NCBI GenBank assembly: GCA_030524175.1
Contig: JAUNHC010000010.1
Location: forward strand, 68,411 to 132,410
Direction: 5' to 3'
DNA length: 64,000 nt
DNA from: Eubacteriales bacterium
GTDB lineage: Bacteria; Bacillota; Clostridia; Lachnospirales; Lachnospiraceae
Shown here: piece after piece, positions 48,318 through 64,000 of the stretch
Position numbering within the stretch: position 1 is the first letter of the stretch
Layout: every line of letters starts with the position of its first letter
Position numbers and translations under genes: made by a program
Notes under the pieces: generated by a model
Seen by the model: the letters and a program-made list of their open reading frames with translations, nothing else
What the model was told of the DNA's origin: nothing
The model's database searches: none

Positions 48318-49055
48318 TTATATCATTCCGCCGTCAATACAGATCACTTGCCCTGTTATATAAGCTGCCTTTTCTGAAGCGAGGTACGCCACCAGATCAG
48401 CCACTTCCTCCGGTTCCCCTATACGGCCCATGGGAACCGTATTAATTGCCTTGGTTAAAATCTGTTCCGGTACAGCAGCAGCCATATCTGTCCGTATAAA
48501 TCCCGGGGCAACAGCATTCACGGTAATACCTTTACGTGCCAGTTCCTTAGCTGCTGTTTTTGTAAGACCTATAATTCCTGCCTTGGAAGCAGCATAATTA
48601 GCCTGTCCTGCATTTCCTGTAATACCTGTCACTGAAGTTATGTTAATTATCCGTCCTTCTTTCTGTCGCACCATCTGACGGGCAGTATACCGGATAGTAT
48701 AGAAGGTCCCCATCAAGTTCGTTTCAATAACCTTACTGAAGTCCTCCTGTGTCATCCTGGCCAACAGTCCGTCCCTCGCAACTCCTGCATTATTCACAAG
48801 TATATCAAGCCTTCCGTAACGTGCAATAAGCCCATCCACCATGCTCCGGACAGCTTCATGATCCGACACGTCACAGCATATGATTTCTCCTGTCCCCTGC
48901 TTCTCCTGTATCAGCCGGAGTGTCTCCAGTGCTGCCTCCCGGGAACTTTGGTAATTTACTGCAACAACAGCCCCTTCTTTTGCCAGTGCAAGAGCAATGG
49001 CCCTGCCGATTCCTTTCCCTGCTCCTGTTACAAGAGCCACTTTTCCAACTAACAT
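48318..49055 (-). CDS. fabG: 3-oxoacyl-ACP reductase (KR), cluster-specific paralog
   Basis: TGAGKGIG, NNAG, YAASK, VNAVAPGFIRT. Confidence 0.9.
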   Translation of the reverse strand: MLVGKVALVTGAGKGIGRAIALALAKEGAVVAVNYQSSREAALETLRLIQEKQGTGEIICCDVSDHEAVRSMVDGLIARYGRLDILVNNAGVARDGLLARMTQEDFSKVIETNLMGTFYTIRYTARQMVRQKEGRIINITSVTGITGNAGQANYAASKAGIIGLTKTAAKELARKGITVNAVAPGFIRTDMAAAVPEQILTKAINTVPMGRIGEPEEVADLVAYLASEKAAYITGQVICIDGGMI

Positions 49056-49064
49056 AATGTCCTC

Positions 49065-50489
49065 CTATAAGGGAATATTTCCATGCTTCCCACCATTACT
49101 TTCAATACAGCCGTCAAGCTCCCTGATCATAGTCTGCCGTGTATTCACCGGCTCCAGAATCCTATCTATCCATCCCTTTTCCACTGCTTTTTCTAAATTC
49201 AGGAAATTATTCCGGTACTCCTGACTTTTTTCCAGGTATGTACTCTTATAGTTTCCTGATTCCTGTGCAGCTTTCAACTCCTTTTTATACAGAACACCAA
49301 GAGCACTTTCTTCTCCCATTACCGCAACCTTTGCGCCAGGCCAGGCAAAAACCCGGTCAGCTCCAAGTGTTTTGCATCCCATAGCAATATATGCACCCCC
49401 AAAGGATTTTCTTATGATAGTGGTGATCCTCATCACGGATGCCTCTCCAAAAGCATAAAGCAGTTTCGCTCCCTCACGGATAATACCCTTCATTTCCTGT
49501 TCTACTCCCGGCATGAACCCTGGCGTATCAACAAAAGACAATATAGGTATCCCAAAGGAATCACAGGTACGTATAAATCTGCCGCCTTTCATTCCTGCTG
49601 CACAATCCAGCACACCGCCCATGAAGGCCGGCTGGTTTGCAAGAATTCCCACGGTTTTTCCTCCGATTCGCCCAAAGCCTGTAATCAGATTCTCCGCGTA
49701 ACCCTCCATATATTCCAAAAAACTGCTCTCATCCAATATTCTCATAAGGAGTGATTTCATATCATAAATCTGATTTTCCCGTTCCGGTAAAATAGAATAT
49801 GGATCATCCAAAGACGCAAGCGCCTGACAGCTATTGGCTTCACCGGAACCTCCTGTCTCTTTACAAGTCAGAAGCTGTATGAGCTGCTGCACTTTCTTCA
49901 AGCATTCTTCTAAGGTTTCACAGCAAAAATGAGACACACCGCTTTTTTTCCTATGCCCTGCCGCACCTCCTAACTCCTCGTGGGAAACTTTCTGGCCGAT
50001 TGCCGTCCTGACTACACTTGGTCCTGTAATATATAAATGGCTAAGATTTTCCACCGTAAAAACAAAGTCGCATAAACCAGGACCATAGGCAGCACCTCCG
50101 GCACAGTTACCTGCAATAACAGAAATCTGAGGAATTTTCCCTGATGCCTGGATGTGTTCCCTGAAAATCGCACCATAGGCAAGCAAGGCGCCCATACCGT
50201 CCTGAATTTTTGCTCCTGCCGAATCATTGATACAGATCAGAGGACACCCTTCCTGGCCTGCCTGTCTCACAAGGGCCGCAATTTTTTCTCCCTGGTCCCA
50301 TCCAAGAGCTGCTCCATGTATGCAGAAATCCTGAGCATAGGCAAACACCTTTTTTCCTGCGATCGTTCCCGTTGCCGTAATCACTCCAAGCTCATTCTCT
50401 TCTTTTTTCTCCCGAAGATCCACTTCCCTGAAGCTGCCCATGTCCACAAGAAATTCAAGCCACGCTCTTGCTTTTTTTTCATTTTTCAT
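49065..50489 (-). CDS. Acyl-CoA carboxylase/decarboxylase carboxyltransferase subunit (PccB/MmdA-like)
   Basis: DSAGAKIQDG, SGKIPQIS, CAGGAAY, ITGPSVV, ELGGA, DTPGFMPG, FGGAYIAM. Confidence 0.9.
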   Translation of the reverse strand: MKNEKKARAWLEFLVDMGSFREVDLREKKEENELGVITATGTIAGKKVFAYAQDFCIHGAALGWDQGEKIAALVRQAGQEGCPLICINDSAGAKIQDGMGALLAYGAIFREHIQASGKIPQISVIAGNCAGGAAYGPGLCDFVFTVENLSHLYITGPSVVRTAIGQKVSHEELGGAAGHRKKSGVSHFCCETLEECLKKVQQLIQLLTCKETGGSGEANSCQALASLDDPYSILPERENQIYDMKSLLMRILDESSFLEYMEGYAENLITGFGRIGGKTVGILANQPAFMGGVLDCAAGMKGGRFIRTCDSFGIPILSFVDTPGFMPGVEQEMKGIIREGAKLLYAFGEASVMRITTIIRKSFGGAYIAMGCKTLGADRVFAWPGAKVAVMGEESALGVLYKKELKAAQESGNYKSTYLEKSQEYRNNFLNLEKAVEKGWIDRILEPVNTRQTMIRELDGCIESNGGKHGNIPL

Positions 50490-50503
50490 CTGCTGACCAC
50501 ATC

Positions 50504-51529
50504 CTATCTCTTAAGTAACATACACATATAATTCCCTGCCGTATCAAGACCGGTTACCAGTATTGATGATATCTTCTCTTCCTTTCGGCTTAATCCCTTT
50601 GGCAGCCGTCCTTTTTTGAGACATAAAGCTCCTATACATATACTCAATGCAAAGGATGCCCCCAAAGTTTCCCCCAGCATGCTCTTTAATCCGGAAACAG
50701 CTATACTGTTGGGAAACCTTCTGCATACTGTCTCAGCTTCCGCCGCATCAAAGGATGTTCCGTTATCACACATAAGCACCGCTTCCGGTATCTCGTCCTG
50801 CACACATTGGGATAATGCCTGCTCTATAAGCTCGCCTGCGTTTTCATCCAGCTTTTCCAATACAGGATATTGTCCAAGGCTGCTGATACCGCTGCCTTCC
50901 ACGCTGCAGTAGGCTGGCTCCGAATTTTCCCCGCACGTGAGATAAACCACCCCGGCACCTTCATACAGAGGTGCTTTCATACCCGCTGAAGCATTTTCTA
51001 TCAATGAAAACAATTCGTCATGAAATTCATCTAAAGACCCAGTCAATATTCCGTGAGCCTTTCCCCTGGACAGAAGAAGCTTACTGTAAGCAATAGGGTT
51101 TCCTGCTGTGAGCATGGTGCTGACTCCCTTAAGCTTCAGCAAAATACAAGTCTGCCCCACGCATGCGTTGGGTACTGTTCTGGTAAACTCTGTCGGACTG
51201 CATAAATCCGGATTTCCCTGGGCAACCTCATGGCAGAATTTAAGATTGGACGTAATTCCCCTGTACCCGGTAGAAAAAATAGTTCCTATGGAAAAATCAT
51301 CTTCCTCTCTTTCCGCACCTGTGTCCTGCAGCGCCCTGACGGATGCACCAAGACAGAGCTTAGCGTACCGGTTCATCCGCCTCAGCTTTGCAGGCGGCAG
51401 CGAAACATTTAAAGGAAGGGCTTCTCTCTGCCTGGCTGCAGGTTTTCCCGCCTCCAATGCCGCCCACACCATATCCTTGTCATCCCCAAGTGCACTGATC
51501 ATGCCAATTCCCGTTATTACTGTTTTCAT
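50504..51529 (-). CDS. Catalytically inactive ketosynthase homolog (chain-length factor / KS-beta-like)
   Basis: VITGIGMISALG start and SPTEFTRTVPNA motif; no ACAS cysteine; His positions read DNGT and GE. Confidence 0.75.
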   Translation of the reverse strand: MKTVITGIGMISALGDDKDMVWAALEAGKPAARQREALPLNVSLPPAKLRRMNRYAKLCLGASVRALQDTGAEREEDDFSIGTIFSTGYRGITSNLKFCHEVAQGNPDLCSPTEFTRTVPNACVGQTCILLKLKGVSTMLTAGNPIAYSKLLLSRGKAHGILTGSLDEFHDELFSLIENASAGMKAPLYEGAGVVYLTCGENSEPAYCSVEGSGISSLGQYPVLEKLDENAGELIEQALSQCVQDEIPEAVLMCDNGTSFDAAEAETVCRRFPNSIAVSGLKSMLGETLGASFALSICIGALCLKKGRLPKGLSRKEEKISSILVTGLDTAGNYMCMLLKR

Positions 51530-51532
51530 ACC

Positions 51533-51961
51533 CTATTTCTCCTGTCTGCGCATACAGCAAGTGATAGTTCCCTTTGCCACCGCCATATTGTCCAAATAAG
51601 CAACACATCTTATCTTCCAGAATCCACATACCTCACTTAACCGTACCGCATCAATTTTCAATAAGTCACCTGGCACACAGGGGTGCAGAAATTTCATATC
51701 CTCTACCCGGGCCAGCACCGGGTAAGTGTGCGTATCACACTGAGATCCCATTAGGATCAGGGCCGTCTGTGCCATAGTCTCTATTAAAAGAACGCCGGGG
51801 AACACAGGATTTTCCGGAAAATGTCCGGCGCACCAGAATTCATTTTCTGTAATCTTTTTAGTCCCCTGCACTTTTTCCCCGGGAATTAAAATTTCCACCT
51901 GGTCAGGCATAAGCATAGGTTCCCGGTAAGGAAGTACCTTTTTCAATTCCTCTCTGTTCAT
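51533..51961 (-). CDS. fabZ: 3-hydroxyacyl-ACP dehydratase (DH)
   Basis: LPYREPML, GHFPENPVFPGVLLIETMAQ. Confidence 0.9.
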   Translation of the reverse strand: MNREELKKVLPYREPMLMPDQVEILIPGEKVQGTKKITENEFWCAGHFPENPVFPGVLLIETMAQTALILMGSQCDTHTYPVLARVEDMKFLHPCVPGDLLKIDAVRLSEVCGFWKIRCVAYLDNMAVAKGTITCCMRRQEK

Positions 51962-53169
51962 ACACTGCCTCCTTTTCCTATCAGAAGGCTGGCTGTATTC
52001 CCGCCAAAGGCAAAAGAATTTGACAACGCATATTCAATGACGCAAGGTTCTGAATCACTGTTTATATTGATTCCTTGCCCTTCCTCCAGCTTTGTTTCCA
52101 GGTGAGGCATGGGAAAAAGGAGCTGGTGTCCCATCATCAATAAGATCGCAGCCAGTTCAACAGCACCGCTGGCCCCCATGCAATGGCCGGTCAGAGCCTT
52201 GGTTGAATTCATATGGACTCCCTTGGGAAATAAGCTTTGTACCGCTTTAGACTCCATAGCATCATTCAACGCTGTCCCTGTACCGTGTGCATTGATATAA
52301 TCAATTTGATCCGGTGCAATACCGCCCTCTTCCAACGCCATTTTCATAGATGCTTTTGCACCTGAACCGTCAGGGTCAGGACTGGTTACGTGGTAGGCAT
52401 CGTTATTTAATCCATATCCTAATATCTCTGCATAAACCGGGACTCCTCTTTTTTGGGCTGATTCCATGGTTTCCATAAGAAAAAATGCACTTCCTTCCCC
52501 AATATTGATCCCATCCCGGTTCTGATCCATAGGGTTTGTAATTCCGCAGCTTAATGCTTTCAGCACATGAAATCCTGCTGCGCCCACTTCCGTAAGGGGA
52601 TCAGTACCTCCTGCCACAGCCATGTCACATATTCCCTCCTTGAGGAAATCATATGCCATACCCAATGCAGTAGTTCCCGAAGCACAGGCTGCCTCACAGG
52701 CATACACACCGCCCCTTACACCTACATTTTTCTGAAGCCAGTACAAATACTGAGACTCACGTTCAATCCAGCCGCCGGCATCCTTTCCTTCCATGCATTT
52801 TTGGGTATATCCCATAAATCTGGACGTGGTCCCCAGAAGAGAACCACAGAAAACAGACGCCTTAGGCCCCAATTTTTCCATCTCTTCGCTGGAAAACCTT
52901 CCATCCTGAAACATTTCCTTGAGCGCTTTCTCCATGAGCCATTCCATACGGCTCTCTTCATACGGTTCCTGGGGAGTACAGGGCAAAGGAATATCTGCCT
53001 GTCCGAAATAGGAGGTACGCAGCTGCTCCACCGGGTAAATATCTGCCTTCCGGATTCCCAAGACTCCTCTCCGGCAATTTTCAAAAAACCTTTCTTTCCC
53101 TATCCCGTTGCTTGCCGCAACACCGAATCCGGTAATTACAATCCGTCTGTCAGATATCATATCTGTCAC
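51958..53169 (-). CDS. Active beta-ketoacyl-ACP synthase (FabF / KS-alpha-like)
   Basis: ACASG (Cys), AHGTGT (His), TGHCMGASG (His), SNSFAFGGN. Confidence 0.92.
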   Translation of the reverse strand: MTDMISDRRIVITGFGVAASNGIGKERFFENCRRGVLGIRKADIYPVEQLRTSYFGQADIPLPCTPQEPYEESRMEWLMEKALKEMFQDGRFSSEEMEKLGPKASVFCGSLLGTTSRFMGYTQKCMEGKDAGGWIERESQYLYWLQKNVGVRGGVYACEAACASGTTALGMAYDFLKEGICDMAVAGGTDPLTEVGAAGFHVLKALSCGITNPMDQNRDGINIGEGSAFFLMETMESAQKRGVPVYAEILGYGLNNDAYHVTSPDPDGSGAKASMKMALEEGGIAPDQIDYINAHGTGTALNDAMESKAVQSLFPKGVHMNSTKALTGHCMGASGAVELAAILLMMGHQLLFPMPHLETKLEEGQGININSDSEPCVIEYALSNSFAFGGNTASLLIGKGGSV

Positions 53170-53444
53170 CCTTTCCTTGCTTCAATGAAATCCGCCACCT
53201 GATCAATGGAGCGCAGGATTTTAAAATCCTCATCCTTTACCTTTATTTCATATTTTGTCTCAATGAGAACAGCAAGTTCCAGAGAATCTATGGAATCCAG
53301 TCCCATCCCGTCATCTCCGTCCTCCATGTCGCTGGAAAACAACGGCCAGTCATACTGGTAATTTTCCTTATCAAAATCTTCCATCTCCACCGCTTCAAGG
53401 ATCCCCTCAAGCAGCTCTTCTTTTAATTTCATATTCGTACTCAT
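53166..53444 (-). CDS. Acyl carrier protein
   Basis: Acidic 92 aa protein with GLDSIDSLEL phosphopantetheine site. Confidence 0.9.
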   Translation of the reverse strand: MSTNMKLKEELLEGILEAVEMEDFDKENYQYDWPLFSSDMEDGDDGMGLDSIDSLELAVLIETKYEIKVKDEDFKILRSIDQVADFIEARKG

Positions 53445-53553
53445 ATTTTACCTCCTGGTTTTAATCACACTTTCCAGTTTGAGAAAAGCGGTATATGCCG
53501 CCGATTGAACATACACCGCTTTTAAGTTTTAACTCATTTCTTAAATATGTATC

Positions 53554-53856
53554 TTATAATATGTCAATATTTCCGGCACCATTAGAACAGCTTACGTATG
53601 ACCCTTTGCCGCCTGCAACATTGTCCAAATCATCTTCAGACATCTCAGCTTCGCCGCCTAAGTATTCTTTTGCTTCTGCTGCTGAAATTTCAAATCCCAT
53701 TTTTTTTGCCAAAGGCTCCAACGCCTCCAGTGTTTCCTCTGTTACATTTTCAAGAGCGGTTCCCGGTGCATTGTATTTTAATACAATCTCCTTGAATTCC
53801 TTGAAGCTTTCCTCATCGGCTGTTACTTTGCTGTAAAAATCCATAAATTTACTCAT
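53554..53856 (-). CDS. Nif11-like RiPP precursor A5 (core KGSYVSCSNGAGNIDIL)
   Basis: Leader KFMDFY...AKKMGFEIS...EMSEDDLDNVAGG. Confidence 0.88.
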   Translation of the reverse strand: MSKFMDFYSKVTADEESFKEFKEIVLKYNAPGTALENVTEETLEALEPLAKKMGFEISAAEAKEYLGGEAEMSEDDLDNVAGGKGSYVSCSNGAGNIDIL

Positions 53857-53935
53857 GTTTCTTCCTCCTTATCGGTTTTGTCTTTTTTATTATAAAAATC
53901 TATGAAAGATTTTTATATCGTTGTAATTTACAAAT

Positions 53936-55315
53936 CTATTCCAATATTCTCTCTATTTTCTCTTTATAGTGTCCCTGCCAAAAAGTGCAGGCAATGGCAT
54001 CTTTCCCAAAATAGTCATTGGCTGAACACAGCGGATTTGCCCTGCAGCTTTTACACTGCAACCGGTTTTCACAGTTTCCGCATTCGGGATTATGCTCAAA
54101 TAAATCTTCCTGAGCTTTATCCACCAGCTCTGTATAGGAAGAATTGGTAAGAAGCTCCTCTAATGAATATTCCCAAACATCAGGCGCCTCATCTTCAACA
54201 GATGTACCGCTCATGGCAATACATGGAATAAAACGGCCGTCTGCCATTAAATATGGATGACGCCGTGCACTCTGGCAAAGATACTGACTACCATTCTCTC
54301 CTTGTTCAGACGGAAGCTTCCAGGAGCCGTCTTTATACCCAAAATAAAATCCCATAATTCCTATTCCGATGGGATATTCATCTTTTTTATAAAGAGACAG
54401 TAATTGTAAATAGTTATCGAAAAGCACCTCTGTACTTAATTTTCTTTTATTTTCTTCCTTTTTCCAATTTCCTGCATCCATAACAGGACCTAGCTTCCAC
54501 ATATCCACATCAAGTTCTTTCATAAGCTCGTAAGTGGCAAAAAGCGAGTCTATATTATTTTCATGAAAAACAGTTGTGACAATAACTCTGTACCCTTCTT
54601 TTTTTAAAAGTCTGACAGCATCAATAGCTTTTTTTTCGCTTCCCTCTACTCTGCGAAGCCATTCATGGCAGCCAACTCCGTCAAAGCTGATCAAAAAAAT
54701 AGGATTAAATTCCCTGACCCTGCATTGTTCTACAAACTCATCATCTATCAGCATGCCGTTGGTAAACAAATTGATGATATGTATTTTTCGTTTCAACAGC
54801 ATATCAACAATTGTCCAGAAATCTTTTCTGACCAATGGCTCTCCGCCTGTAAGAGCAACTGCAGAAATATTTGCTTCAACCATTTGTTCAATGATCTCCT
54901 CACACTTTTCCAAAGGTAGCTCTCCGTATTTATTCTCTCCACTGCAAACATAACAATGCCTGCAGCGGAGATTGCATTTCCCTGTTATAGACCAGAGGAC
55001 AGAATGGATATACCTGGCCGATGTTTTGTGGTATCTCTGCCAGGAACTCAGCATTGTCTTTTCGCCGGAATATTCCAGGATTCCCAGCTCGACAGCTTTC
55101 TCTGCCAGTCTCCGGTATCTGCGTGGAAAAAAGGGAGAATCTGCCTCAACACCTGAAGCGGCCAACTCCAACGCATAAAACTGCTCCTTGCTTAACATCA
55201 GCCGATTACGTCCCTGACTGCCAATATCAGTTAATCCATAGGGTTCATTTTCCCATCCTCTTAATGCAAACTGATTCTTAAGGTGATAGTACTTCTTGTT
55301 CCTCTCCATTTCCAC
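53936..55315 (-). CDS. Radical SAM/SPASM peptide maturase
   Basis: CNLRCRHC, LTGGEP, SFDG; SPASM Cx12Gx4C...Cx2Cx5Cx2C-x18-C; ~100-aa N-terminal extension (RRE-like). Confidence 0.9.
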   Translation of the reverse strand: MEMERNKKYYHLKNQFALRGWENEPYGLTDIGSQGRNRLMLSKEQFYALELAASGVEADSPFFPRRYRRLAEKAVELGILEYSGEKTMLSSWQRYHKTSARYIHSVLWSITGKCNLRCRHCYVCSGENKYGELPLEKCEEIIEQMVEANISAVALTGGEPLVRKDFWTIVDMLLKRKIHIINLFTNGMLIDDEFVEQCRVREFNPIFLISFDGVGCHEWLRRVEGSEKKAIDAVRLLKKEGYRVIVTTVFHENNIDSLFATYELMKELDVDMWKLGPVMDAGNWKKEENKRKLSTEVLFDNYLQLLSLYKKDEYPIGIGIMGFYFGYKDGSWKLPSEQGENGSQYLCQSARRHPYLMADGRFIPCIAMSGTSVEDEAPDVWEYSLEELLTNSSYTELVDKAQEDLFEHNPECGNCENRLQCKSCRANPLCSANDYFGKDAIACTFWQGHYKEKIERILE

Positions 55316-55357
55316 CTTCTCATCTTCTCCTTTTATACATAAACGTATATTGTAAAC

Positions 55358-55642
55358 TTAATAATAGACATAGACATCGCCTTTCCCGCCTGCTACTGAA
55401 TCAAGCTCATTCTCTGAAAGTTCCATCTCATCCACACTGAAAAACTCTGCTGCTTCCTCTGCTGTTATATCAAACCCGCACCTCGAACAAAGTGGTACCA
55501 GATCTTCAAAGGTTTCCCTGGAAACTTTATTCATAGGCGTGCCCTTTTTATTATGCCGAAGATATATATTTTTGAATTCTTCTTCAAGTTCTTTATCAGC
55601 TGTAATTGTGTTATAAAACTCCATGAACTTATTATCTCTCAT
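55358..55642 (-). CDS. Nif11-like RiPP precursor A4 (core KGDVYVYY)
   Basis: Leader ends ELSENELDSVAGG; ATG after GGAGG. Confidence 0.88.
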   Translation of the reverse strand: MRDNKFMEFYNTITADKELEEEFKNIYLRHNKKGTPMNKVSRETFEDLVPLCSRCGFDITAEEAAEFFSVDEMELSENELDSVAGGKGDVYVYY

Positions 55643-55994
55643 GTAAATAGCCTCCAATCGTAATTTTTCGCTTTCCCTTCAACGAACCAATCTCAATTTC
55701 TATTGATTGTGCCCCCTCACCATCGTAGACATAGTTCTTACCTTTACCTCCAGCAACAGAATCCAGATCATCCTCGTCAAGTTCTATCTCTTCTCCGGAA
55801 AAATACTCCACCGCTTCCTCAGGCTTAATGGAATATCCCATATCTTCTGCCATTTTTCCTACTTCCTTCCATGCCTCTTCCCCAATATCGGCAAAAGATG
55901 CTGCATTAGGGTGGTATTTCAGTAAAATCTCCTGAAATTCCTTTTCTTTGCCTGACTCTGTAAGCTTTTCATAAAACTGCTGAAATTTATCCAT
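55632..55994 (-). CDS. Nif11-like RiPP precursor A3 (core KGKNYVYDGEGAQSIEI...)
   Basis: Leader ends ELDEDDLDSVAGG. Confidence 0.85.
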   Translation of the reverse strand: MDKFQQFYEKLTESGKEKEFQEILLKYHPNAASFADIGEEAWKEVGKMAEDMGYSIKPEEAVEYFSGEEIELDEDDLDSVAGGKGKNYVYDGEGAQSIEIEIGSLKGKRKITIGGYLHER

Positions 55995-56005
55995 TTAATC
56001 TCCTT

Positions 56006-56296
56006 TCACGGATAATGATGGTATGTATTATATTTGCCACCAGCAATACTATCCAGTTCTTCATCACATAGTTCCCGTTCATCTTCGCTGAAAAATTTGT
56101 TCAGATCCTCTTTTGTTATGGTATATCCGGCCGCCTCCGCCAACTTCAAAAATCCTTCTTTGGTTTCTTCAGATGCGTGATTAATGGACTTTCCAGAGTC
56201 TCCGCTGTCTTTTACAATCTGTTTAAACTGTCTCCAGATTTCAGGATTTTTCTCCATGTCCTGATAAAATGCCTGGACCTGATTCATATTTTTCAC
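56006..56296 (-). CDS. Nif11-like RiPP precursor A2 (core KYNTYHHYP)
   Basis: Leader ...LAEAAGYTIT...ELCDEELDSIAGG. Confidence 0.88.
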   Translation of the reverse strand: MKNMNQVQAFYQDMEKNPEIWRQFKQIVKDSGDSGKSINHASEETKEGFLKLAEAAGYTITKEDLNKFFSEDERELCDEELDSIAGGKYNTYHHYP

Positions 56297-56607
56297 CCCC
56301 AGCTTTCACTTGTCACATTACCATTTGCATCATAATAAATATCATGGTCGCCTTTACCGCCTCCGGCCACAGCATCTAACTCGCTTTCCTCCAGCTGTCT
56401 CTCGCCCTGGAAATATTCAATAGCTTCTTCAGATGTGATATGAAACCCAAGTTTTTCAGCCAAAGGCTCCAATGCGTTAAAGGTTTCAGCCGAAGCATCC
56501 TGAATAGGTGTATCAGATGAATTGTACTTAAGGAATATCTCTGCAAATTCCTTCCTTGCTGCCACATCATCGGAAATCCTTTTATAAAACTCTTTATACT
56601 TGTCCAT
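56293..56607 (-). CDS. Nif11-like RiPP precursor A1 (core GKGDHDIYYDANGNVTSESWG)
   Basis: Leader ...LAEKLGFHIT...QLEESELDAVAGG. Confidence 0.88.
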   Translation of the reverse strand: MDKYKEFYKRISDDVAARKEFAEIFLKYNSSDTPIQDASAETFNALEPLAEKLGFHITSEEAIEYFQGERQLEESELDAVAGGGKGDHDIYYDANGNVTSESWG

Positions 56608-56624
56608 TTCTACCTCCTTTTTTC

Positions 56625-57521
56625 CTATTCTGCTGCTTTTATAAAGTTATATTGAAGTTTTTCTTTTACAGTTACCTGCTTTAATATTTTGTCTGCAAAA
56701 GCAAGTGCCGGAAGATTCCCCTCATACATAGCATAGACTCCCCGCCTGCATCCCTCATTCCAGAACTGTTCCATGGTTTTTGCAAACGGCAGAAGCACAG
56801 TACCTTGGCTGATCATCTTCTGACAGGTTGAAATCTGCTCGAAGACAACACTGCTTTTGTCCACTTTGGATACCAGGCTGTATGCTGCGATCTCATCTCC
56901 CCGCACACACAGAAAACTCATGGTATCTGATACAGGCGTCCGTTTGCCTTCCAGAAATCCTCTGACATGAAGCTGATTACCATATTCATTTCCCTCTGAT
57001 CTCCGCAGCTTTTCCAGCCATTCCTCTCCGCATTCCCGGAATGATATTGTTACAAATCCTTGCTGTTCCAGCCAGGCGGCCAGCCGCTTTCCCTTACGGT
57101 CCATGTACTCATTCCAATGTATGAAGTCATCCCTCACACAAGTAAATAAGTGTACCTTATCTTTAATCATAAAGCCTTCCTGCTCAACCAATTTCTTTAG
57201 ACAGTCATACCATTCAGACTCTTCCTGTATTGAAAATTTCCACTCCTTCGTGCCTTTCTTTTCCCTAAGCTCATTGCGAAGCAGCATACCTGCATATCCT
57301 TTTCTGCGGAATTCCTCTCTCACAAACAGAAAACGGATATTCCTGTATTCACGTTCGTCTGTGACCAGGCAAAATCCCGCCGGCAAATGTTCTGCAAAAA
57401 GTACATGGAGACTTCCTTGAGTCAACTGTGCCTCTCTTGCAATTAAATCAACAAAGCGGCTTCTTAAATCCAGGAACAGAATCTGAAATTCCAGATATGA
57501 AACTTCTCTAAATGAAATCAT
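56625..57521 (-). CDS. Tandem GNAT-fold acyltransferase
   Basis: Motif A LFVREEFRRKGYAGMLL in the N-domain; second degenerate GNAT-like domain (EIAAYSLV..VFEQIS..EGNLPALAF); ATGA overlap with upstream gene. Confidence 0.75.
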   Translation of the reverse strand: MISFREVSYLEFQILFLDLRSRFVDLIAREAQLTQGSLHVLFAEHLPAGFCLVTDEREYRNIRFLFVREEFRRKGYAGMLLRNELREKKGTKEWKFSIQEESEWYDCLKKLVEQEGFMIKDKVHLFTCVRDDFIHWNEYMDRKGKRLAAWLEQQGFVTISFRECGEEWLEKLRRSEGNEYGNQLHVRGFLEGKRTPVSDTMSFLCVRGDEIAAYSLVSKVDKSSVVFEQISTCQKMISQGTVLLPFAKTMEQFWNEGCRRGVYAMYEGNLPALAFADKILKQVTVKEKLQYNFIKAAE

Positions 57522-58378
57522 TCTAACCCCCCTTGACACCATTCACATATGGAACGGCTGCACAGCCAAAGTTTCCTCCGGTAATCATCCATTTCACTGA
57601 ATATTTTGCTCCGGCTCCACTTCTCCAGGCTCTCGGCTGCCAGTACTGCTGTCCTGGAAACCACCTCATGAGTTTCCTCCGGAAGTTCATTCATATAAAA
57701 TTTAAGCCGCCTTCCCGAAATCCCTCTTAATCCCAGAAAACTTAGAAACCATTCCGCCCGATATTCTCCAAATGCATATAATATTCCGAAAAAATCTGCA
57801 ATACACTCGTCATAAAGGTTATTTCTGGAGGATCCCAATACCTGTTTCGTAAAATAATGAGTACATTCATGCTCCAGCCTTATTTTCATAGATTTGTCTT
57901 TCCATTCCTCTTCGGTTATGCCTATTTCTTCAGCCGGAACATTGCTATAATCCTTGTTTGACAGAATAATAAATCGTGTTTTTTTGCCGTACGCAAAGGA
58001 TGCTCCTGTACTTTCCAGTCCCTGGGGACGCTTACCCTTATATATGATCTGTACTACCAATGTCTCAAAATCCTTCTGACATCCTGCCTTGATCACCGGT
58101 ATCCCGCCAACTGGTGTATGGTGTAAGACCAGCTCTACCAAGTCCGGTTCTTCAAAAGTCATATAACGTTCCACAGGCACCATATAACGGTTCAGAGCAT
58201 CTGCCGCCGACTTTGCTGCTGCATGATCAAAGATTCTTTCCCACGCCTTTAGGAACTCAATGTCACATGCTGGTTCTTTCCCCGGTTCAGGTATAATAAA
58301 AGGGTTGCGGAAATACTCCTCCAGAATAGAAATATCTTTTTCCCTTGCCCCCAAACTTTTCAAAAATTCCTTTTCCAT
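57518..58378 (-). CDS. HExxH-containing protein (gluzincin-like metal site), function unknown
   Basis: HECTH followed by NNLYDECIAD. Confidence 0.7.
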   Translation of the reverse strand: MEKEFLKSLGAREKDISILEEYFRNPFIIPEPGKEPACDIEFLKAWERIFDHAAAKSAADALNRYMVPVERYMTFEEPDLVELVLHHTPVGGIPVIKAGCQKDFETLVVQIIYKGKRPQGLESTGASFAYGKKTRFIILSNKDYSNVPAEEIGITEEEWKDKSMKIRLEHECTHYFTKQVLGSSRNNLYDECIADFFGILYAFGEYRAEWFLSFLGLRGISGRRLKFYMNELPEETHEVVSRTAVLAAESLEKWSRSKIFSEMDDYRRKLWLCSRSICEWCQGGLE

Positions 58379-58389
58379 GTTTATACTCC

Positions 58390-60552
58390 TTATACCAGCT
58401 GCCGTTTAGCCATTTGTGCAAACATGCCGTCCATACTCATCAACTCCTCATAAGTTCCGGATTCAGCAACCTTCCCCTGATGAAGATATACAATGCGCGA
58501 ACAGTTTCTTATGGTAGACAGGCGATGGGCGATCACAATTCTTGTACACCTGGTCTCCTCCAATGACTTCACCACTATAGCCTGGGTAATATTATCCAAA
58601 GCGGATGTGGCCTCATCAAACATGAGAATACTAGGATCTGCCACCAAAGCCCTGGCTATGAGCAGTCTCTGCTGCTGTCCGCCGGAAAGGCCCCCGCCGC
58701 CTTCGGAAATCATAGTAAACATGCCCATAGGCATATTTCGGATATCTTCAGCAAAACCGGCCTTTTCCGCTGCATTCCAGGCATCCTCTATGGTCAGCCA
58801 GGGCGCACAGATTACAATATTGGAATAAATATCACCGGAAAAGAGCTTTCCGTTTTGAAGTACCACTCCAATTTTCTGCCGTACGCTGCGCACATCAACT
58901 CCGGCCAAGTCATTTCCGTCAAAGTACACAGCGCCTGATTCCGGTTTTTCGAATCCAAGCAGCAGACGGAACAAGGTTGATTTTCCGCAGCCTGAGGAAC
59001 CTACTATCCCAAGATACTCTCCCGGCTTAATATGCAGGCTTAGTTCATCCAGGACATACGGCATGTCCTCGTTATAACGGAACCTTACCTGGTTTACTTC
59101 TATTTCACCCTCTAATTCCCCTATCTGTTTTTTTATCCCGTCCGATTCCGGCGCCGCTTCCAGGATTGGCTTAAGCATATCCACTGCAGGCCGCAGAGAG
59201 GAAATCTGTGACGCAAGTCCAGACAGAGCAAGCACACTTGCTGTAAACGCTGCAAAAGCAGAGTTAAATGCGATGTACTGGGATGTACTCATCTCCCTGC
59301 TGTAAGCTGTTAAATACAATACAATAGTGCCTCCAAAAGATACAAAATTCGTAAGGGCCGTGGACATCTGAAGAAATTTTCCCGGAATCAAGGGCTGTCT
59401 GCTGTACAAATCTGCCCATTTCCGAAATGCTCTTACTTCTGCCCCTGCCACCTTTATTTTTGTGATTCCGTCTAAAAACTGGAAGACCATGCCGGAAAGC
59501 TTATTGCTCACTTCGTTTTCCGCTTTTGTCTGTATCATCTGGTAATATGCTGTCAGCAATGACACACCCAGCAGTAAAATAATGATCACCAGTGACGGCA
59601 GAAGCATTGAGGAATGTATCTGTGTAATCTGAAACAAATACAGGAAAGAGAACATGGAACCTAGTAAAGTAGGTATCATAGCTCCGCCCAAAATTGTGCA
59701 GATCTGATTGACTGAGTTCGCCCTTGAAGTCATTTCACCGGAATCATATTCCTTGAAAAAGCCTGTGGGAAGACTCATGATCCTGGCCCATACAGCCCCT
59801 TGGGCATTCAATTCCAATTTATTGCCTATACGCATCACCCACAAGGTTCTGGACAGTCCCATAATTGCAGAAATAACGGTTGTTCCTACCAGAAGAACCG
59901 TGATTCCGAAAAGTGTGTCAGGTGTGCCTGATGGAACCACAAAATTAAAGATAAACTGCGTAATGGAAGGAAGGATCAATCCGATCAGTCCGACCACCAG
60001 GCTTATTCCCAGCAGACATAAAATATCAGCACGTGAAAATGACTGCGCCAGAAATCTCCAGAAATCTTTAATTGTCAGACTCCGGCTTTCAAAGGGCCGG
60101 TAAATACAGTAGGCTGTATCCCTGAATCCTCCTGCATTTTTCTTGGTAACCTTAACTGTATCCTCTCCCTGTATCCAGATATAGCCTCCGCCTGCTGCCG
60201 GAATCAATGCACGTATTTCTCCTGTCTCATGCCAGCATAAAAGAGGCATGGAACCATCCTTCCACCATTTCCCCTCCAGGGAAATTTTTCTTCTGAGAAT
60301 TCCCGTGACGGACATAGCGTACTGAACTTGTTCTTCATCACCGCTGATATCTTCAGGAATCTCAATAGGCTTCATTTGAAAAAAATCCAAAATCCGGTTT
60401 ATTTCCTGGCCAAGAGATGTGCTTGAATCTCCTTTTTCATTTTCCTTCGGCTGCAGCGAATGATAAACGTGCGTAGAAGAATATTGAAACATTTCTCTGT
60501 CAATGCGCTTTTTTTCTTTTAGTTTTTGAGAAAAATCATTCAAATATCTCAC
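58390..60552 (-). CDS. NHLM/NHLP-type bacteriocin ABC transporter, subunit without active peptidase
   Basis: Degenerate C39-like N-domain without Cys, 6 TM, GSSGCGKST, LSGGQQQR, FDEATSALD. Confidence 0.9.
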   Translation of the reverse strand: MRYLNDFSQKLKEKKRIDREMFQYSSTHVYHSLQPKENEKGDSSTSLGQEINRILDFFQMKPIEIPEDISGDEEQVQYAMSVTGILRRKISLEGKWWKDGSMPLLCWHETGEIRALIPAAGGGYIWIQGEDTVKVTKKNAGGFRDTAYCIYRPFESRSLTIKDFWRFLAQSFSRADILCLLGISLVVGLIGLILPSITQFIFNFVVPSGTPDTLFGITVLLVGTTVISAIMGLSRTLWVMRIGNKLELNAQGAVWARIMSLPTGFFKEYDSGEMTSRANSVNQICTILGGAMIPTLLGSMFSFLYLFQITQIHSSMLLPSLVIIILLLGVSLLTAYYQMIQTKAENEVSNKLSGMVFQFLDGITKIKVAGAEVRAFRKWADLYSRQPLIPGKFLQMSTALTNFVSFGGTIVLYLTAYSREMSTSQYIAFNSAFAAFTASVLALSGLASQISSLRPAVDMLKPILEAAPESDGIKKQIGELEGEIEVNQVRFRYNEDMPYVLDELSLHIKPGEYLGIVGSSGCGKSTLFRLLLGFEKPESGAVYFDGNDLAGVDVRSVRQKIGVVLQNGKLFSGDIYSNIVICAPWLTIEDAWNAAEKAGFAEDIRNMPMGMFTMISEGGGGLSGGQQQRLLIARALVADPSILMFDEATSALDNITQAIVVKSLEETRCTRIVIAHRLSTIRNCSRIVYLHQGKVAESGTYEELMSMDGMFAQMAKRQLV

Positions 60553-60555
60553 CCC

Positions 60556-62736
60556 TTATTCGCTTTTTACCAATGCGGCATATTTGCCGTCAAGTGCAGT
60601 AAGTTCTTCATGTGTGCCGCGTTCCATCTCCTGCCCGTATTCCAAAAGGATGATCTCGTCCGCATCACGGATCGTTGACAGCCTGTGTGCAATTACGAGA
60701 CATGTAATTCCCCTGCGCTTTACCGCATCCATGATCTTTTTCTCTGTATAGGGATCCAGCGCTGATGTTGCTTCATCCATGATCAGCACAGACGGCTCCG
60801 CCGCAAAAGCCCTGGCAATTTCAAGACGCTGACGCTGCCCTCCTGAAAAATTGCTTCCGCCCTCTTGTATCACGAAATCATATCCATTTTTTCTTCCGAC
60901 GATCTCATCATGTATACAGGCATCTCTGCAGGCCTCAACAATGGTTTCCTCACTCATTGTCTCATCCCACATAGAAATATTTTCCCGTATGGTTCCTTCA
61001 AACAAAGAGATACTCTGGTCCACCATTGCAACAGAATTTAGTATGACATAATGATCCACCTCACTTCTGTCTTTACCGTCAAGGAGGACTTTGCCGCTGT
61101 TTGGAGGATATAAACCTGCTATGATCTTTGCCACTGTTGATTTACCGCTTCCGCTGCCTCCCACCAACGCGATCATATCGCCTGGCTTTGCGTGAAAGCT
61201 CAGGTTCTTGATAAGAGGCTCTGCCAGCGGGCTGTATCCGAAGGTAAGATCTGAAAGAGTTACGTCACCTTTTAATTTCTCGTATACAGTTTGGGTTTCA
61301 CGCTCCTCATCCAGTTGACCCTCTTCTTCAAAACTGATGTCAACATCTGTAGGGTAATTCATTACATCTTCCACTCTTTCCATATTCCCGCCCATATCCT
61401 GAAAAGCCTGCATGGAATTTACAACCGCTCCAACGGGCTGAAGAAAAAGACTTACAAATCCCTGAAAAGCCATCAATGTTCCGATTGTGAACTTACCCAC
61501 AAAAATCTGATATACACCCATGACTAAAATAGCGCAATTGCACAGACCTGTAAGTATCTGGGGGGCAATCCCGATATAGGCATTATTTTTTTTGAGCACA
61601 AGCAATGAATTATTATATTTTGTCTGGTATCCTGATATCTTTTCAAAGAAACCGAATTCTGCACCGCTTGCCTTAATGGTTTCTATCATGGAAATACCTG
61701 CAACCATGATTCCTGAAAGCTTTCCTGAATCCCTCTGGATGTTTTTCACTGCGTTAGCGTTCTGTTTTGACACCTGTTTCATTATCACCACGTTTATGAC
61801 AGCCATACCCATTCCCACTAATGCCATGGGTATATCATAATAAAGCATTAGAATGAAATACATTCCGATCATTACAACATTCAATGCTACAGGAGCTATG
61901 GTCACGCACAAAGTATCCGCAATTGCGTCAATGCTGGTCAAACGTGCGGAGATATCTCCGGCAAAACGCTGGGCAAAAAAGCCTATCGGAAGACGAAGTA
62001 TATGCCATATAAAAGATGAGGAAGAACCTATGCTCATTTTTGCCCTGATCTTATAGAGATAAATGCTCTGCAGTGCCTCAAACAGAAAACCCGCAAACAA
62101 TACAAGGATCATCCCCTGAATCATAGGCATCATCCACTCCGGTGCATTATTCAGAAGGATACTGTCAGTAAACATTTGATAAAATACCGGTTTGATCATG
62201 CCGATCACAGCCAGCAGGAAACCCATGGTAAGGACAAAACCCAACGGAGCCTTGGAGCCGTCAAGCCTTTTTTTCAAAAAGCCCATAATACTTTTTGGTT
62301 TACCCTCAGGTTTAAAATCAGCCATTGGCTTAAACGTCATGGATACGCCGGTAAAAGATTTGTCAAACACCTCCATCGGTACTTTCACAGTCCCGCCTGC
62401 GGGATCATTGAGAATTGCATAATCCTTCCTGAAACCGCACAGCACTACAAAGTGATTAAAGTTCCAATGGATGATCATAGGAAAATCTTCCGGTTTCTTT
62501 TCCTTTAGTTTTTGTACGCCGATCCGGAAGCCTCTCGCCTCAAGGCCGTGATGTCTGGCCGCCTTTAATATATATTTAGCTGTGCTTCCATCTCTGGATA
62601 CATTGCAGTCCACCCTCAACTGCTCAAGGGGAACAAACTTTTTATAGTAGGCCAGAATCATCGCTAAAGATGCTGCCCCGCACTCCAGGGCCTCCATCTG
62701 CAGAATCACCGGCACTTTTACGATTTTTCTTCCCAT
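60556..62736 (-). CDS. NHLM/NHLP-type peptidase-containing ABC transporter (C39 + TMD + NBD)
   Basis: QMEALECGAASL (Cys), HWNFNHFVV (His), NDP (Asp), GGSGSGKST, FSGGQRQR. Confidence 0.93.
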   Translation of the reverse strand: MGRKIVKVPVILQMEALECGAASLAMILAYYKKFVPLEQLRVDCNVSRDGSTAKYILKAARHHGLEARGFRIGVQKLKEKKPEDFPMIIHWNFNHFVVLCGFRKDYAILNDPAGGTVKVPMEVFDKSFTGVSMTFKPMADFKPEGKPKSIMGFLKKRLDGSKAPLGFVLTMGFLLAVIGMIKPVFYQMFTDSILLNNAPEWMMPMIQGMILVLFAGFLFEALQSIYLYKIRAKMSIGSSSSFIWHILRLPIGFFAQRFAGDISARLTSIDAIADTLCVTIAPVALNVVMIGMYFILMLYYDIPMALVGMGMAVINVVIMKQVSKQNANAVKNIQRDSGKLSGIMVAGISMIETIKASGAEFGFFEKISGYQTKYNNSLLVLKKNNAYIGIAPQILTGLCNCAILVMGVYQIFVGKFTIGTLMAFQGFVSLFLQPVGAVVNSMQAFQDMGGNMERVEDVMNYPTDVDISFEEEGQLDEERETQTVYEKLKGDVTLSDLTFGYSPLAEPLIKNLSFHAKPGDMIALVGGSGSGKSTVAKIIAGLYPPNSGKVLLDGKDRSEVDHYVILNSVAMVDQSISLFEGTIRENISMWDETMSEETIVEACRDACIHDEIVGRKNGYDFVIQEGGSNFSGGQRQRLEIARAFAAEPSVLIMDEATSALDPYTEKKIMDAVKRRGITCLVIAHRLSTIRDADEIILLEYGQEMERGTHEELTALDGKYAALVKSE

Positions 62737-62757
62737 TATGTCCTCCTGTGTGGGTAT

Positions 62758-63678
62758 TTACGGCATTAAAAGCCGAATAGGATTGACCTCACTTGTTATC
62801 ACAATAATAGAGCATCTTGTACCAAGCTCTACAGCCAGTTCTTCTCCTTTTTTGTTAGACCATTCATAAGAATTTTTTGAGTCGGGATTCAAGTTTATTT
62901 TAATATGTACTTCCACACAGGACGTATCCGGAAGAAAGTCCTTTACATATGACATTGTGCCCATATGACGTATAATACTGTCCTCCGTGGCAGGAATGCT
63001 TCCTACAGAAGTAACCACCCCGGACATATACCCATATTCTTCTCTCGGGGCATAATTGGGAGAAATCTGAGCCTGCATACCTGCGCGGATTCCTTTTGCC
63101 TGTTCCATAGGAACAAATGCAATGATTTCGTTATATCCTCCATTGGAAGTTTCGCCTATGATAGAAGATACGATTGCTCCGTCGGTAATATCGGTTCCCA
63201 CTGCTGCAATACTCTGGACAGATCCTGAGTAACTGCTTCGCAATACTGTTTCTGCCTGGTATTCCTCAATCTTACGCTGTATCTTTTGTTCCATTAACAG
63301 CTGCTCATCTGTATTTTTCTCCATGACAGCCATCTCATCTTTCATATTCTGGATTTCTTCCAAGACAGCTTCATTTGACAGAGTCATCAAAATGTCACCG
63401 GTGGCCACAACCTGGCCCTCCTGCACCAAAACATCACTGACGATTCCGTCACACATAGCGTAAACATTCTGGATATCCCTGTTACTGAACAAAACACCTT
63501 CTATATTGACTCCATTTGTGATCGTATAGGTAAAGGCCCATACAACAAAGGACACTGCACCTGCCAGAATTGCCAAATACAACAGCCAGGTTGCCGGTCT
63601 CATGATTTTTACCTGCTGATTAAGCTGTTCCGGCGTGGCCACATGGTCCGTCGCCGTTTTCCTGAAAATATCTGCCAT
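62758..63678 (-). CDS. NHLM/NHLP bacteriocin system secretion protein (HlyD-like)
   Basis: IFRKTA...TPEQLNQ N-terminus, TM, biotinyl-lipoyl-like GIVSDVLVQEGQVV, SPNYAPREEYGYMSG. Confidence 0.88.
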   Translation of the reverse strand: MADIFRKTATDHVATPEQLNQQVKIMRPATWLLYLAILAGAVSFVVWAFTYTITNGVNIEGVLFSNRDIQNVYAMCDGIVSDVLVQEGQVVATGDILMTLSNEAVLEEIQNMKDEMAVMEKNTDEQLLMEQKIQRKIEEYQAETVLRSSYSGSVQSIAAVGTDITDGAIVSSIIGETSNGGYNEIIAFVPMEQAKGIRAGMQAQISPNYAPREEYGYMSGVVTSVGSIPATEDSIIRHMGTMSYVKDFLPDTSCVEVHIKINLNPDSKNSYEWSNKKGEELAVELGTRCSIIVITSEVNPIRLLMP

Positions 63679-63721
63679 AATCTCTTCCTCATTTCAATAT
63701 TTAGAGCAAAACCCAAAACAA

Positions 63722-64000
63722 TCAAATCTCATAAAGCACAATTTTCGCCCCGCATTTACAGTTGCTTTTGCACAAGGGACAATATACATCATTGGATTCA
63801 ATTCCCTTATAGAACTGCAAATCTGTTATTATCCCAATTTCTCTGGAAAAATGATTCTTCAAAGAATATTCCGGTTCTTTCCTGTCATAGGGAATCCACT
63901 GCTCTGCCAGGAGAAATGACGCTTTCTTCTCTATCAGCCTGGCTTTTGCCAATTCCGTCATTTCCTTTTGCATACCGCGGTTTCTCATTTTCTTTTTGGT
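63722..64000 (-). CDS. 3' end of an upstream ORF with a Cys-rich C-terminus (probably truncated by the window edge)
   Basis: Frame is open to position 64000; ends YCPLCKSNCKCGAKIVLYEI. Confidence 0.45.
   Translation of the reverse strand, partial: TKKKMRNRGMQKEMTELAKARLIEKKASFLLAEQWIPYDRKEPEYSLKNHFSREIGIITDLQFYKGIESNDVYCPLCKSNCKCGAKIVLYEI

Follow-up and report, generated by a model that had tools for sequence, protein, structure and literature searches.

Several important drugs, daptomycin and polymyxin among them, are fatty-acylated peptides, and the giant non-ribosomal enzymes that produce them are difficult to engineer. We know of few ribosomal routes to lipopeptides, none of which joins a ketosynthase (KS)/chain length factor (CLF) pair, a GNAT coupled to an acyl-acyl carrier protein (acyl-ACP) and a radical SAM (rSAM) enzyme, and none of which comes from strict gut anaerobes. 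In the selidamides, a lipid-bearing kind of RiPPs (peptides that are ribosomally synthesized and then modified post-translationally), the GNATs acylate a Lys or Orn side chain, and in kamptornamide and nostolysamide this residue stands at core position 1 (PMC13647313; PMC8784127). The goadvionin enzyme GdvG uses an acyl-ACP as its donor (PMC8784127; PMC11685415). Here we describe a run of genes at positions 48318-64000 of a 64,000-nucleotide stretch, referred to below as the window, from a Lachnospiraceae genome (Eubacteriales bacterium, assembly GCA_030524175.1, contig JAUNHC010000010.1, positions 68,411 to 132,410). Judging from its gene content and that of related loci, this is probably one biosynthetic operon for lipidated ribosomal peptides, in which the operon's own machinery would build a lipid that is attached to a lysine near the start of the peptide core.

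The minus strand of this region carries 18 same-direction, closely packed open reading frames (ORFs), in the order given by an earlier sequence-only reading of the window. The spacing, for which that reading had given mostly overlaps or gaps of a few to tens of bp, is −26 to +43 bp with the exception of 79 bp between the rSAM gene and precursor A5 and 109 bp between A5 and the ACP gene; a further 196 bp separate the last gene, encoding a FabG-type reductase, from a histidine kinase gene. Family assignments throughout are based on Pfam and NCBIfam scans with family cut-offs. Five genes encode Nif11-type precursors: A1 (56293..56607; leader ending LDAVAGG, core GKGDHDIYYDANGNVTSESWG), A2 (56006..56296; LDSIAGG, core KYNTYHHYP), A3 (55632..55994; LDSVAGG, core KGKNYVYDGEGAQSIEIEIGSLKGKRKITIGGYLHER) and A4 (55358..55657; LDSVAGG, core KGDVYVYY) stand in a row, and A5 (53554..53856; LDNVAGG, core KGSYVSCSNGAGNIDIL) lies beyond the rSAM gene. 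The TIGR03798 cut-off of 32.3 bits is reached by two of the five, A2 (46.8 bits; also PF07862, 1.2e-8) and A4 (32.3 bits, equal to the cut-off), while A5 scores 29.1 bits and A1 and A3 match weakly (19.1 and 17.6 bits); these last three are paralogues with 33-50% identity, and all five leaders end in (V/I)AGG. Leader model, GG motif and paralogy together confirm all of the four-plus-one precursors first proposed. With its listed TTG start, A4 would share 26 nt with the end of A3 (55632-55657), and its true start is probably an internal ATG (MRDNKFMEFY...). The cores of A1 to A4 are rich in Tyr, and A5 is the only one with a Cys. As in selidamide-type precursors, an acylatable Lys lies near the start of each core, at +1 in four and at +2 in A1.

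Upstream of the precursors lies a three-gene NHLM export system: a HlyD-family secretion adaptor of NHLM type (62758..63678, 306 aa; TIGR03794, 169.2 bits versus a cut-off of 156.2; PF13437), NHLM ABC exporter 1 with an N-terminal C39 leader peptidase (60556..62736, 726 aa; TIGR03796, 940.6 versus 853.3; PF03412, 7e-32) and NHLM ABC exporter 2, a permease/ATPase without peptidase (58390..60552, 720 aa; TIGR03797, 739.1 versus 709.4). Each passes its own cut-off, upholding the initial assignment of a complete NHLM transporter with a C39 peptidase, and the Gln/Cys (ECGAASL), His (NHFVVL) and Asp (NDPAGG) residues of the C39 domain can be read in the translation.

The evidence that connects these peptides to the lipid-building genes downstream is comparative. 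Genes for the GNAT and the ACP occur together in eight related loci (L001, L003, L085, L086, L118, L122, L123 and G422), seven of which also encode KS and CLF, usually with a ketoreductase (KR), the eighth (L118) being a short contig with the ACP only; a further instance, G421, has ACP-KS-CLF with precursors on short contigs. The CLF gene adjoins the KS gene in those seven and in G421. The ACP gene directly follows the GNAT gene in all of the eight except G422, where about 430 bp lie between them, and in six (not L001 or G422) the ACP gene begins before the GNAT stop, so that a carrier protein and KS share a cluster with a GNAT adjacent to its carrier, as expected for a goadvionin-type system. 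In the window the precursors and the rSAM gene separate GNAT from ACP, another permutation of the same parts. Every locus examined whose rSAM enzyme is 41-48% identical to that of the window (L001, L003, L086, L122 and L123) has GNAT-ACP-KS-CLF inside a RiPP cluster, and GNAT homologues as a starting point lead to the same cassette (L085). For the close relatives, the absence of polyketide or fatty acid synthase (PKS/FAS) genes from homologous RiPP clusters, which the sequence-only reading had named as refuting it, is not what we observe: the cassette is present in all of those examined. It lies between the exporter genes and the precursors and rSAM gene in four of them (L001, L003, L086 and L122), a gene order unlike that of the window, and directly ahead of the precursors and rSAM gene in L123; L086 was seen on 21 contigs, and L122 comes from a metagenome-assembled genome (MAG) of Ruminococcus sp.

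Fusion proteins also tie the peptide half of the system to the lipid half. DUF7005, a HExxH protein encoded in the window next to the GNAT (57518..58378; PF22541, 1.6e-55), is fused to the GNAT in a 600-aa protein whose gene is followed by that of an ACP (P0131, L118:5473-7275), and to the rSAM enzyme in two proteins of 760-784 aa (P0017 and P0023). The proposal of the sequence-only reading that the PKS/FAS arm and the GNAT serve the peptide pathway is supported by comparative genomics, through the recurrent cassette, these fusions, the core Lys and the same-genus cluster G422.

The cassette also occurs with another kind of partner enzyme. G422, from the same genus (L128/L131, contig C43), encodes GNAT, ACP, KS, FabZ, CLF, FabG, carboxyltransferase, DUF7005 and an NHLM exporter together with YcaO and a methyltransferase as partner enzymes, and has no rSAM gene on its 22-kb contig; its two Nif11 precursors are Lys-first and resemble bacteriocin IIc. 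Besides the window's own, two of the 24 same-genus genomes searched have a CLF, both with Lys-first Nif11 precursors. The cassette is patchily distributed over same-genus genomes and over rumen and gut metagenome contigs, and the window sequence itself was found in runs labelled gut metagenome. More distant clusters, with rSAM enzymes 31-37% identical (L005-L014, from rumen and gut MAGs), have Nif11 precursors and NHLM exporters with no lipid genes and no N-terminal Lys; about 10 true relatives of this kind were among the matches listed in an rSAM-profile search of genome contigs, all of them without the cassette. Such a pattern would be expected if a lipidation module had been joined to a peptide system that existed before it.

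The position of Lys follows the cassette closely. Among nine cassette-bearing loci, every one of the 21 cores carries it in residues 1 to 3 (at +1 in 17 of them, typically AGG|KG..., and at +3 in L123), compared with 1 core out of 17 in eight loci that have no cassette; the association has a Fisher p of 8e-10 by core and 4e-4 by locus, values that are inflated because the cassette-bearing loci may share ancestry and so do not represent independent events. A5 is the best phmmer match for nearly all precursors from the cassette-bearing loci. Since the precursors of G422 are Lys-first with no rSAM gene on the contig, the Lys tracks the GNAT/ACP arm and not the rSAM enzyme. We also considered that the conserved Lys takes part in a Lys-Tyr crosslink made by the rSAM enzyme, and set this aside: the Lys is kept in an rSAM-less cluster and missing from rSAM clusters without a GNAT. 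These patterns suggest that the lipid arm is a portable module that tracks an N-terminal Lys, the position acylated in selidamides. The wider proposal, to which we give roughly even weight, is that a lipidation module of gut and rumen anaerobes (tandem GNAT, private ACP, KS/dead-KS, with or without KR, dehydratase and carboxyltransferase) plugs into Nif11-leader clusters of differing chemistry, rSAM here and YcaO in a sister species, and writes an ACP-built, possibly unsaturated acyl group onto the side chain of Lys1.

The GNAT (56625..57542, 305 aa) is the proposed link between the two halves, and its family is rare. Its Pfam matches are weak (PF00583) and cover residues 39-109, the N-terminal part only; a word-indexed homology search found only the protein itself, and a full HMMER search against 1.84 billion representatives recovered about 150 clusters, nearly all of 290-320 aa and 20-38% identical. 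A GNAT profile found no full-length member beyond the window's own genome among 399 scored genomes of the same class, which yielded generic single-domain GNATs only. An AlphaFold2 model built from 40 homologues (predicted local distance difference test [pLDDT] score of 93.7) shows two domains, and its best PDB neighbors in Foldseek, MAB_4324c, 2wpw (the clavulanate tandem GNAT), VipF and MshD, are all tandem-repeat GNATs, so the label of tandem GNAT, originally given on sequence, is correct. A further neighbor is a histidine acetyltransferase solved with N-myristoyl-histidine. We propose that the enzyme is an acyl-ACP:peptide-Lys N-acyltransferase.

The chain would be built by the products of six genes at the downstream end of the operon. 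These encode an ACP with a GLDSID motif (53166..53444, 92 aa; PF00550), a KS (51958..53169, 403 aa; PF00109/PF02801), a FabZ-type 3-hydroxyacyl-ACP dehydratase (51533..51961, 142 aa; NF000582, 114.6 versus 113; PF07977), a CLF-like partner of the KS (50504..51529, 341 aa; weak matches to the KS N- and C-domains), an acyl-CoA carboxyltransferase/decarboxylase alpha-type subunit (49065..50489, 474 aa; PF01039, 2.7e-132, 442 bits; TIGR01117 mmdA, 484 versus 999) and a FabG-type 3-oxoacyl-ACP reductase (48318..49055, 245 aa; TIGR01830, 314 versus 298). The Cys-His-His triad of the KS is intact (AACASG, HGTGT and GH motifs) and predicts an active enzyme, while the partner beside it has lost all three catalytic residues (Cys163→Leu, His303→Asn and His340→Glu relative to Escherichia coli FabF). 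The first reading of an active KS paired with an inactive CLF-like KS therefore holds, with the correction that the position of Cys163 carries Leu and not the Gln of classical aromatic type II PKS. Present in G422 and missing from most relatives, the carboxyltransferase is a divergent subunit of MmdA/PccB type.

This set is additional to the housekeeping FAS II genes on contig C108: the KS, FabZ and FabG are 33%, 33% and 59% identical to their housekeeping counterparts (FabF on the same contig), and no other copy of the ACP (at E ≤ 1e-5) or of the CLF was found in the genome with tblastn. The best NCBIfam match of the ACP is PRK09184 (50 bits versus a cut-off of 70) and a near-best match of the KS is PRK09185 (270 versus 407), both below cut-off; we take these two models to be tied to aryl-polyene clusters. 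Pfam and NCBIfam scans found no thioesterase or enoyl reductase among the cluster genes, and the latter gap means that the acyl chain may stay unsaturated. A FabD-type transacylase and phosphopantetheinyl transferases (PPTases) are encoded only outside the cluster, so that loading and phosphopantetheinylation of the ACP must occur in trans. The same genome has a second acyl-carrier locus (C51:91700-106100) with a FabH-like KS III, two small ACPs, an AMP-ligase, short-chain dehydrogenases/reductases (SDRs), a malonyl transacylase, an AcpS-type PPTase, a carboxyltransferase 42% identical to that of the cluster and putative sugar-modifying genes, labels that come from reading the ORFs and are backed by searches for the transacylase, PPTase, carboxyltransferase and one SDR. 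It may supply a transacylase or PPTase in trans.

We hypothesize that the parts work together as follows. Five precursors would be made, each with a Nif11-type leader of about 85 residues ending in AGG and a short core with Lys at its start. The private ACP, primed and loaded by the genome's PPTase and FabD, would carry a chain elongated by the active KS and the dead CLF-like subunit and processed at the beta-carbon by FabG and FabZ, with the carboxyltransferase supplying or trimming malonyl units. The tandem GNAT would then release the chain by transferring it from ACP to peptide, most likely to the epsilon-amine of core Lys1 with the leader still attached, an acylation that would combine selidamide-like regiochemistry with a goadvionin-like acyl-ACP donor. 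The rSAM/SPASM-like enzyme would install a crosslink in the core, possibly a thioether in the Cys-bearing A5, and the C39-ABC/ABC/HlyD exporter would cleave after GG and secrete the lipopeptides, all under the control of the adjacent two-component system.

The chain might also never reach the peptide. The ACP/KS/CLF/GNAT arm could make a separate small lipid (for instance a polyene in free form or an N-acylated amino acid), or the GNAT could prime the KS by decarboxylating malonyl-ACP, like the GNAT-like domains of CurA and GphF, with the peptides exported unlipidated and merely co-regulated. A CLF without the priming Gln does call for some priming activity, and distant members of the GNAT family occur outside any RiPP or ACP context (L119). 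Yet no other enzyme of the cluster could off-load the chain, a thioesterase being absent, and the cassette sits inside Nif11/NHLM clusters wherever the flanks sufficed; the core Lys co-varies with it, and the DUF7005::GNAT and rSAM::DUF7005 fusions link the arm to peptide-processing proteins. We regard this explanation as unlikely and retain lipidation of the peptide.

The rSAM enzyme (53936..55315, 459 aa) has an N-terminal extension, a PF04055 domain (2.7e-23) and a Cys-rich, SPASM-like C-terminal domain. It has the core motif CNLRCRHC (C114, C118 and C121) and seven C-terminal Cys that are invariant across 40 homologues, as expected of an rSAM/SPASM maturase, and its profile matches SkfB (6efn; 9e-24) and SuiB (5v1q; 4e-14 over residues 34-441) in the PDB. 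The Pfam SPASM model (PF13186) matches some of the homologues and not the window protein, so that of the original radical SAM/SPASM call the first half stands on a direct match and the SPASM-type domain is deduced from the seven Cys and the full-length alignment with SuiB. Among named maturase families (StsB sactipeptide, WgkB, Nif11-class maturase 3 and others), the best score was 115 bits against cut-offs of 515-725.

We read DUF7005 as a general accessory of Nif11 systems with a metal site, which could be a peptidase or something new. Its R..HECxH and DE..AD motifs are invariant in 40 homologues, and an AlphaFold2 model (pLDDT 95, predicted template modelling score 0.92) found no PDB fold match with E below 0.9 (best about 1), nor did the protein find a PDB sequence match; the model may represent an undescribed fold around a HExxH/DE metal site. 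The family comprises 576 or more clusters at 90% identity, and most of these come from anaerobes of the gut and rumen. One member heads a YcaO-type Nif11 cluster without lipid genes or a GNAT (L120:10001-20846), where it is followed by small ORFs, four of which we take for precursors of Nif11 type whose cores are rich in Gly and Ala, and the cluster further encodes a methyltransferase, two YcaO proteins, a small protein of rSAM/SPASM type and an exporter of C39-ABC type; the same contig bears a protein that one source names Robinsoniella peoriensis DUF7005.

If DUF7005 were a cytoplasmic leader peptidase, the N-terminal alpha-amine that leader removal sets free could receive the lipid, as happens in goadvionins, lipolanthines and lipoavitides, and the Lys would serve another role, such as charge or a crosslink. 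The GNAT-lipidated RiPPs described so far, selidamides apart, are indeed acylated at the N terminus once the leader is gone (PMC13647313), and the invariant HExxH and DE motifs and the fusion of DUF7005 to a GNAT in one relative are compatible with such a role. However, the intact C39 leader peptidase of the exporter needs a leader, DUF7005 is missing from the cassette-bearing loci L003 and L122 and present in clusters without a GNAT, and its model has no significant match to a protease fold; nor would acylation of an alpha-amine require a conserved Lys, which is found at +3 in L123 and at +2 in A1. This alternative appears to us quite unlikely, and acylation of the Lys side chain remains the preferred reading. 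That an rSAM RiPP cluster and a small FAS-like cluster merely became neighbors by chance is highly improbable. It is true that rSAM/Nif11/NHLM clusters without lipid genes exist (L005-L014) and that the widest gaps (79 and 109 bp) fall at the junction, but the junction in the window parts the GNAT, which is among the RiPP genes, from its ACP, which is among the FAS genes; relatives have their lipid genes interleaved in different orders, and both the Lys covariation and the fusion proteins speak against it.

Several points weigh against a lipidated product as we propose it, in addition to the inflated p values given above. The structural neighbors of the GNAT are acetyl-CoA enzymes at template modelling scores of about 0.6, and no link by sequence to a characterised peptide acyltransferase is detectable. 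Because the CLF has no Gln for decarboxylative priming, chain initiation is left unexplained, and neither chain length nor saturation is predictable, the relatives having only KS-CLF with or without KR. The reaction of the rSAM enzyme is likewise left open because four of the five cores have no Cys. Finally, a search of sequencing runs found no RNA-seq run that carries the locus.

Downstream of the FabG gene, a terminator-like hairpin (48268-48250) precedes a LytS-type histidine kinase (46841-48121; PF06580/PF02518) and a response regulator (46041-46838; PF00072), both on the same minus strand. This pair probably regulates the cluster, and in L009 homologues of the kinase and the regulator (8.7e-51 and 3.2e-59) are encoded immediately upstream of the rSAM gene. 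Promoter and terminator scans gave no enrichment over shuffles. Downstream of the two-component system and on the same strand, positions 43638-45651 encode a 473-aa protein kinase of Ser/Thr type (PF00069) and an ORF of 216 aa without a family, whose link to the cluster is not established.

The cluster probably continues beyond the other end of the window. The edge ORF lies on the minus strand there, as first read, and what the window holds is its 3' part (63722..64000); the full ORF is 192 aa (C70:132132-132710, in our numbering of contigs of this genome, G000), continues for about 300 bp outside and ends 43 bp upstream of the HlyD gene. It has no Pfam match, and the related loci examined showed no homologue of it ahead of their exporter genes; its membership in the cluster is uncertain. 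Past the window end on the plus strand, a gene for a 1005-aa protein (C70:134081-137098, equal to L132:1682-4699) encodes about 600 N-terminal residues with a faint NHL-repeat signal and a C-terminal MFS_1 domain, and a 385-aa Peripla_BP_6 lipoprotein is encoded between it and the edge ORF. The 1005-aa protein is homologous (tblastn, 9e-38) to MFS proteins of about 1,000 aa that are conserved in L001, L086 and L122, a short way downstream of the rSAM gene, and could be an immunity or transport component. These three relatives have extra conserved genes: one for a DUF2807 protein between the KR gene and the precursors, one for an LPG_synthase_C protein, and, beyond the rSAM gene, a GNAT-like ORF of 290 aa. 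None of the three was found beside the window cluster, the latter two having only weak matches in the genome, on contig C26. The C-terminal domain of the LPG_synthase_C protein resembles that of MprF, and these genes may give self-protection from a membrane-active product. We note that the assembly of the window's genome is 5.95 Mb in 119 contigs with a stated contamination of 2.7%, against 2.0-4.1 Mb for 24 genomes of the same genus, and represents either an unusually large genome or a mixed bin.

Were the proposed pathway correct, it would offer a compact, gene-encoded means to attach a lipid of choice to one specified Lys in nearly any short peptide, and a new family of anaerobe lipo-RiPPs. 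Such membrane-active peptides would be a new family in the microbiome and candidates for roles in gut competition, with the tandem GNAT and DUF7005 as two uncharacterised enzyme families for study. The Lys-first rule and the reuse of the module with YcaO or rSAM partners make the hypothesis directly testable.

The full-text literature searched, which omits most subscription journals, contained no paper on this architecture or on DUF7005, in agreement with the sequence-only reading, whose author knew of no characterised pathway in gut Clostridia that combines Nif11 precursors, SPASM chemistry and a KS/CLF pair. Five groups of described systems share parts with it. The selidamides (kamptornamide, phaeornamide and the nostolysamides, with the enzymes KspN, PhaN and NpuN) likewise have an NHLP/Nif11-type leader with a GG site and a GNAT-superfamily enzyme in the cluster, but ACP, KS and CLF are missing from their clusters and the acyl-CoA is taken from primary metabolism, their cores are modified by LanM and arginase and not by an rSAM enzyme, and their hosts are cyanobacteria and proteobacteria; the likeness of our tandem GNAT of about 300 aa to KspN, PhaN and NpuN is one of superfamily and cluster context. 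In goadvionins and lipolanthines dedicated polyketide or fatty acid machinery lies in the RiPP cluster and a GNAT joins an ACP-bound chain to the peptide (PMC11685415), as proposed here. These differ in their actinobacterial type I PKS, their avionin class III lanthipeptide core and acylation of the alpha-amine after leader removal, and they have no KS-CLF pair, rSAM enzyme or NHLM exporter; conversely, no goadvionin-type LanKC, decarboxylase or modular PKS is found among the 18 genes. Discrete FAS-type enzymes that build the acyl unit within a RiPP cluster, and a GNAT (LpvE) that attaches it, are also found for the lipoavitides of Streptomyces (bioRxiv 10.1101/2023.10.25.564083), which in contrast obtain a short branched acyl-CoA by FabH-type KS III chemistry, carry an AviMeCys macrocycle, are acylated at the N terminus and come from an aerobic actinomycete.

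For the lipid arm, the nearest parallels are the aryl-polyene and highly reducing type II PKS systems (ApeO/ApeC, Iga11/Iga12 and AmcF/AmcG of cispentacin), which share an active KS with a dead partner, a discrete ACP, KR and dehydratase and the lack of an enoyl reductase. The cispentacin models match weakly, below cut-off, and PDB relatives include 6kxd, 6qsp and 7f28; the KS stands about equally close to ordinary FabF. Unlike those systems, the window has no aryl-starter, cyclase or lipid-anchoring genes, and its product is proposed to end on a peptide. The rSAM enzyme resembles SuiB (streptide) and SkfB (sactipeptide) in its CxxxCxxC motif, N-terminal peptide-binding extension and Cys-rich auxiliary-cluster domains, and differs in a variant SPASM motif (CX2CX5CX2C) and in substrates that are Lys-first and mostly Tyr-rich, one with a Cys. 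What is new here would be a variant of lipidated RiPPs whose acyl chain, acylation site and rSAM crosslink we infer from these comparisons: by analogy, the system would work like a cross of selidamides and goadvionins, equipped with a KS/CLF chain factory and with core modification by an rSAM enzyme.

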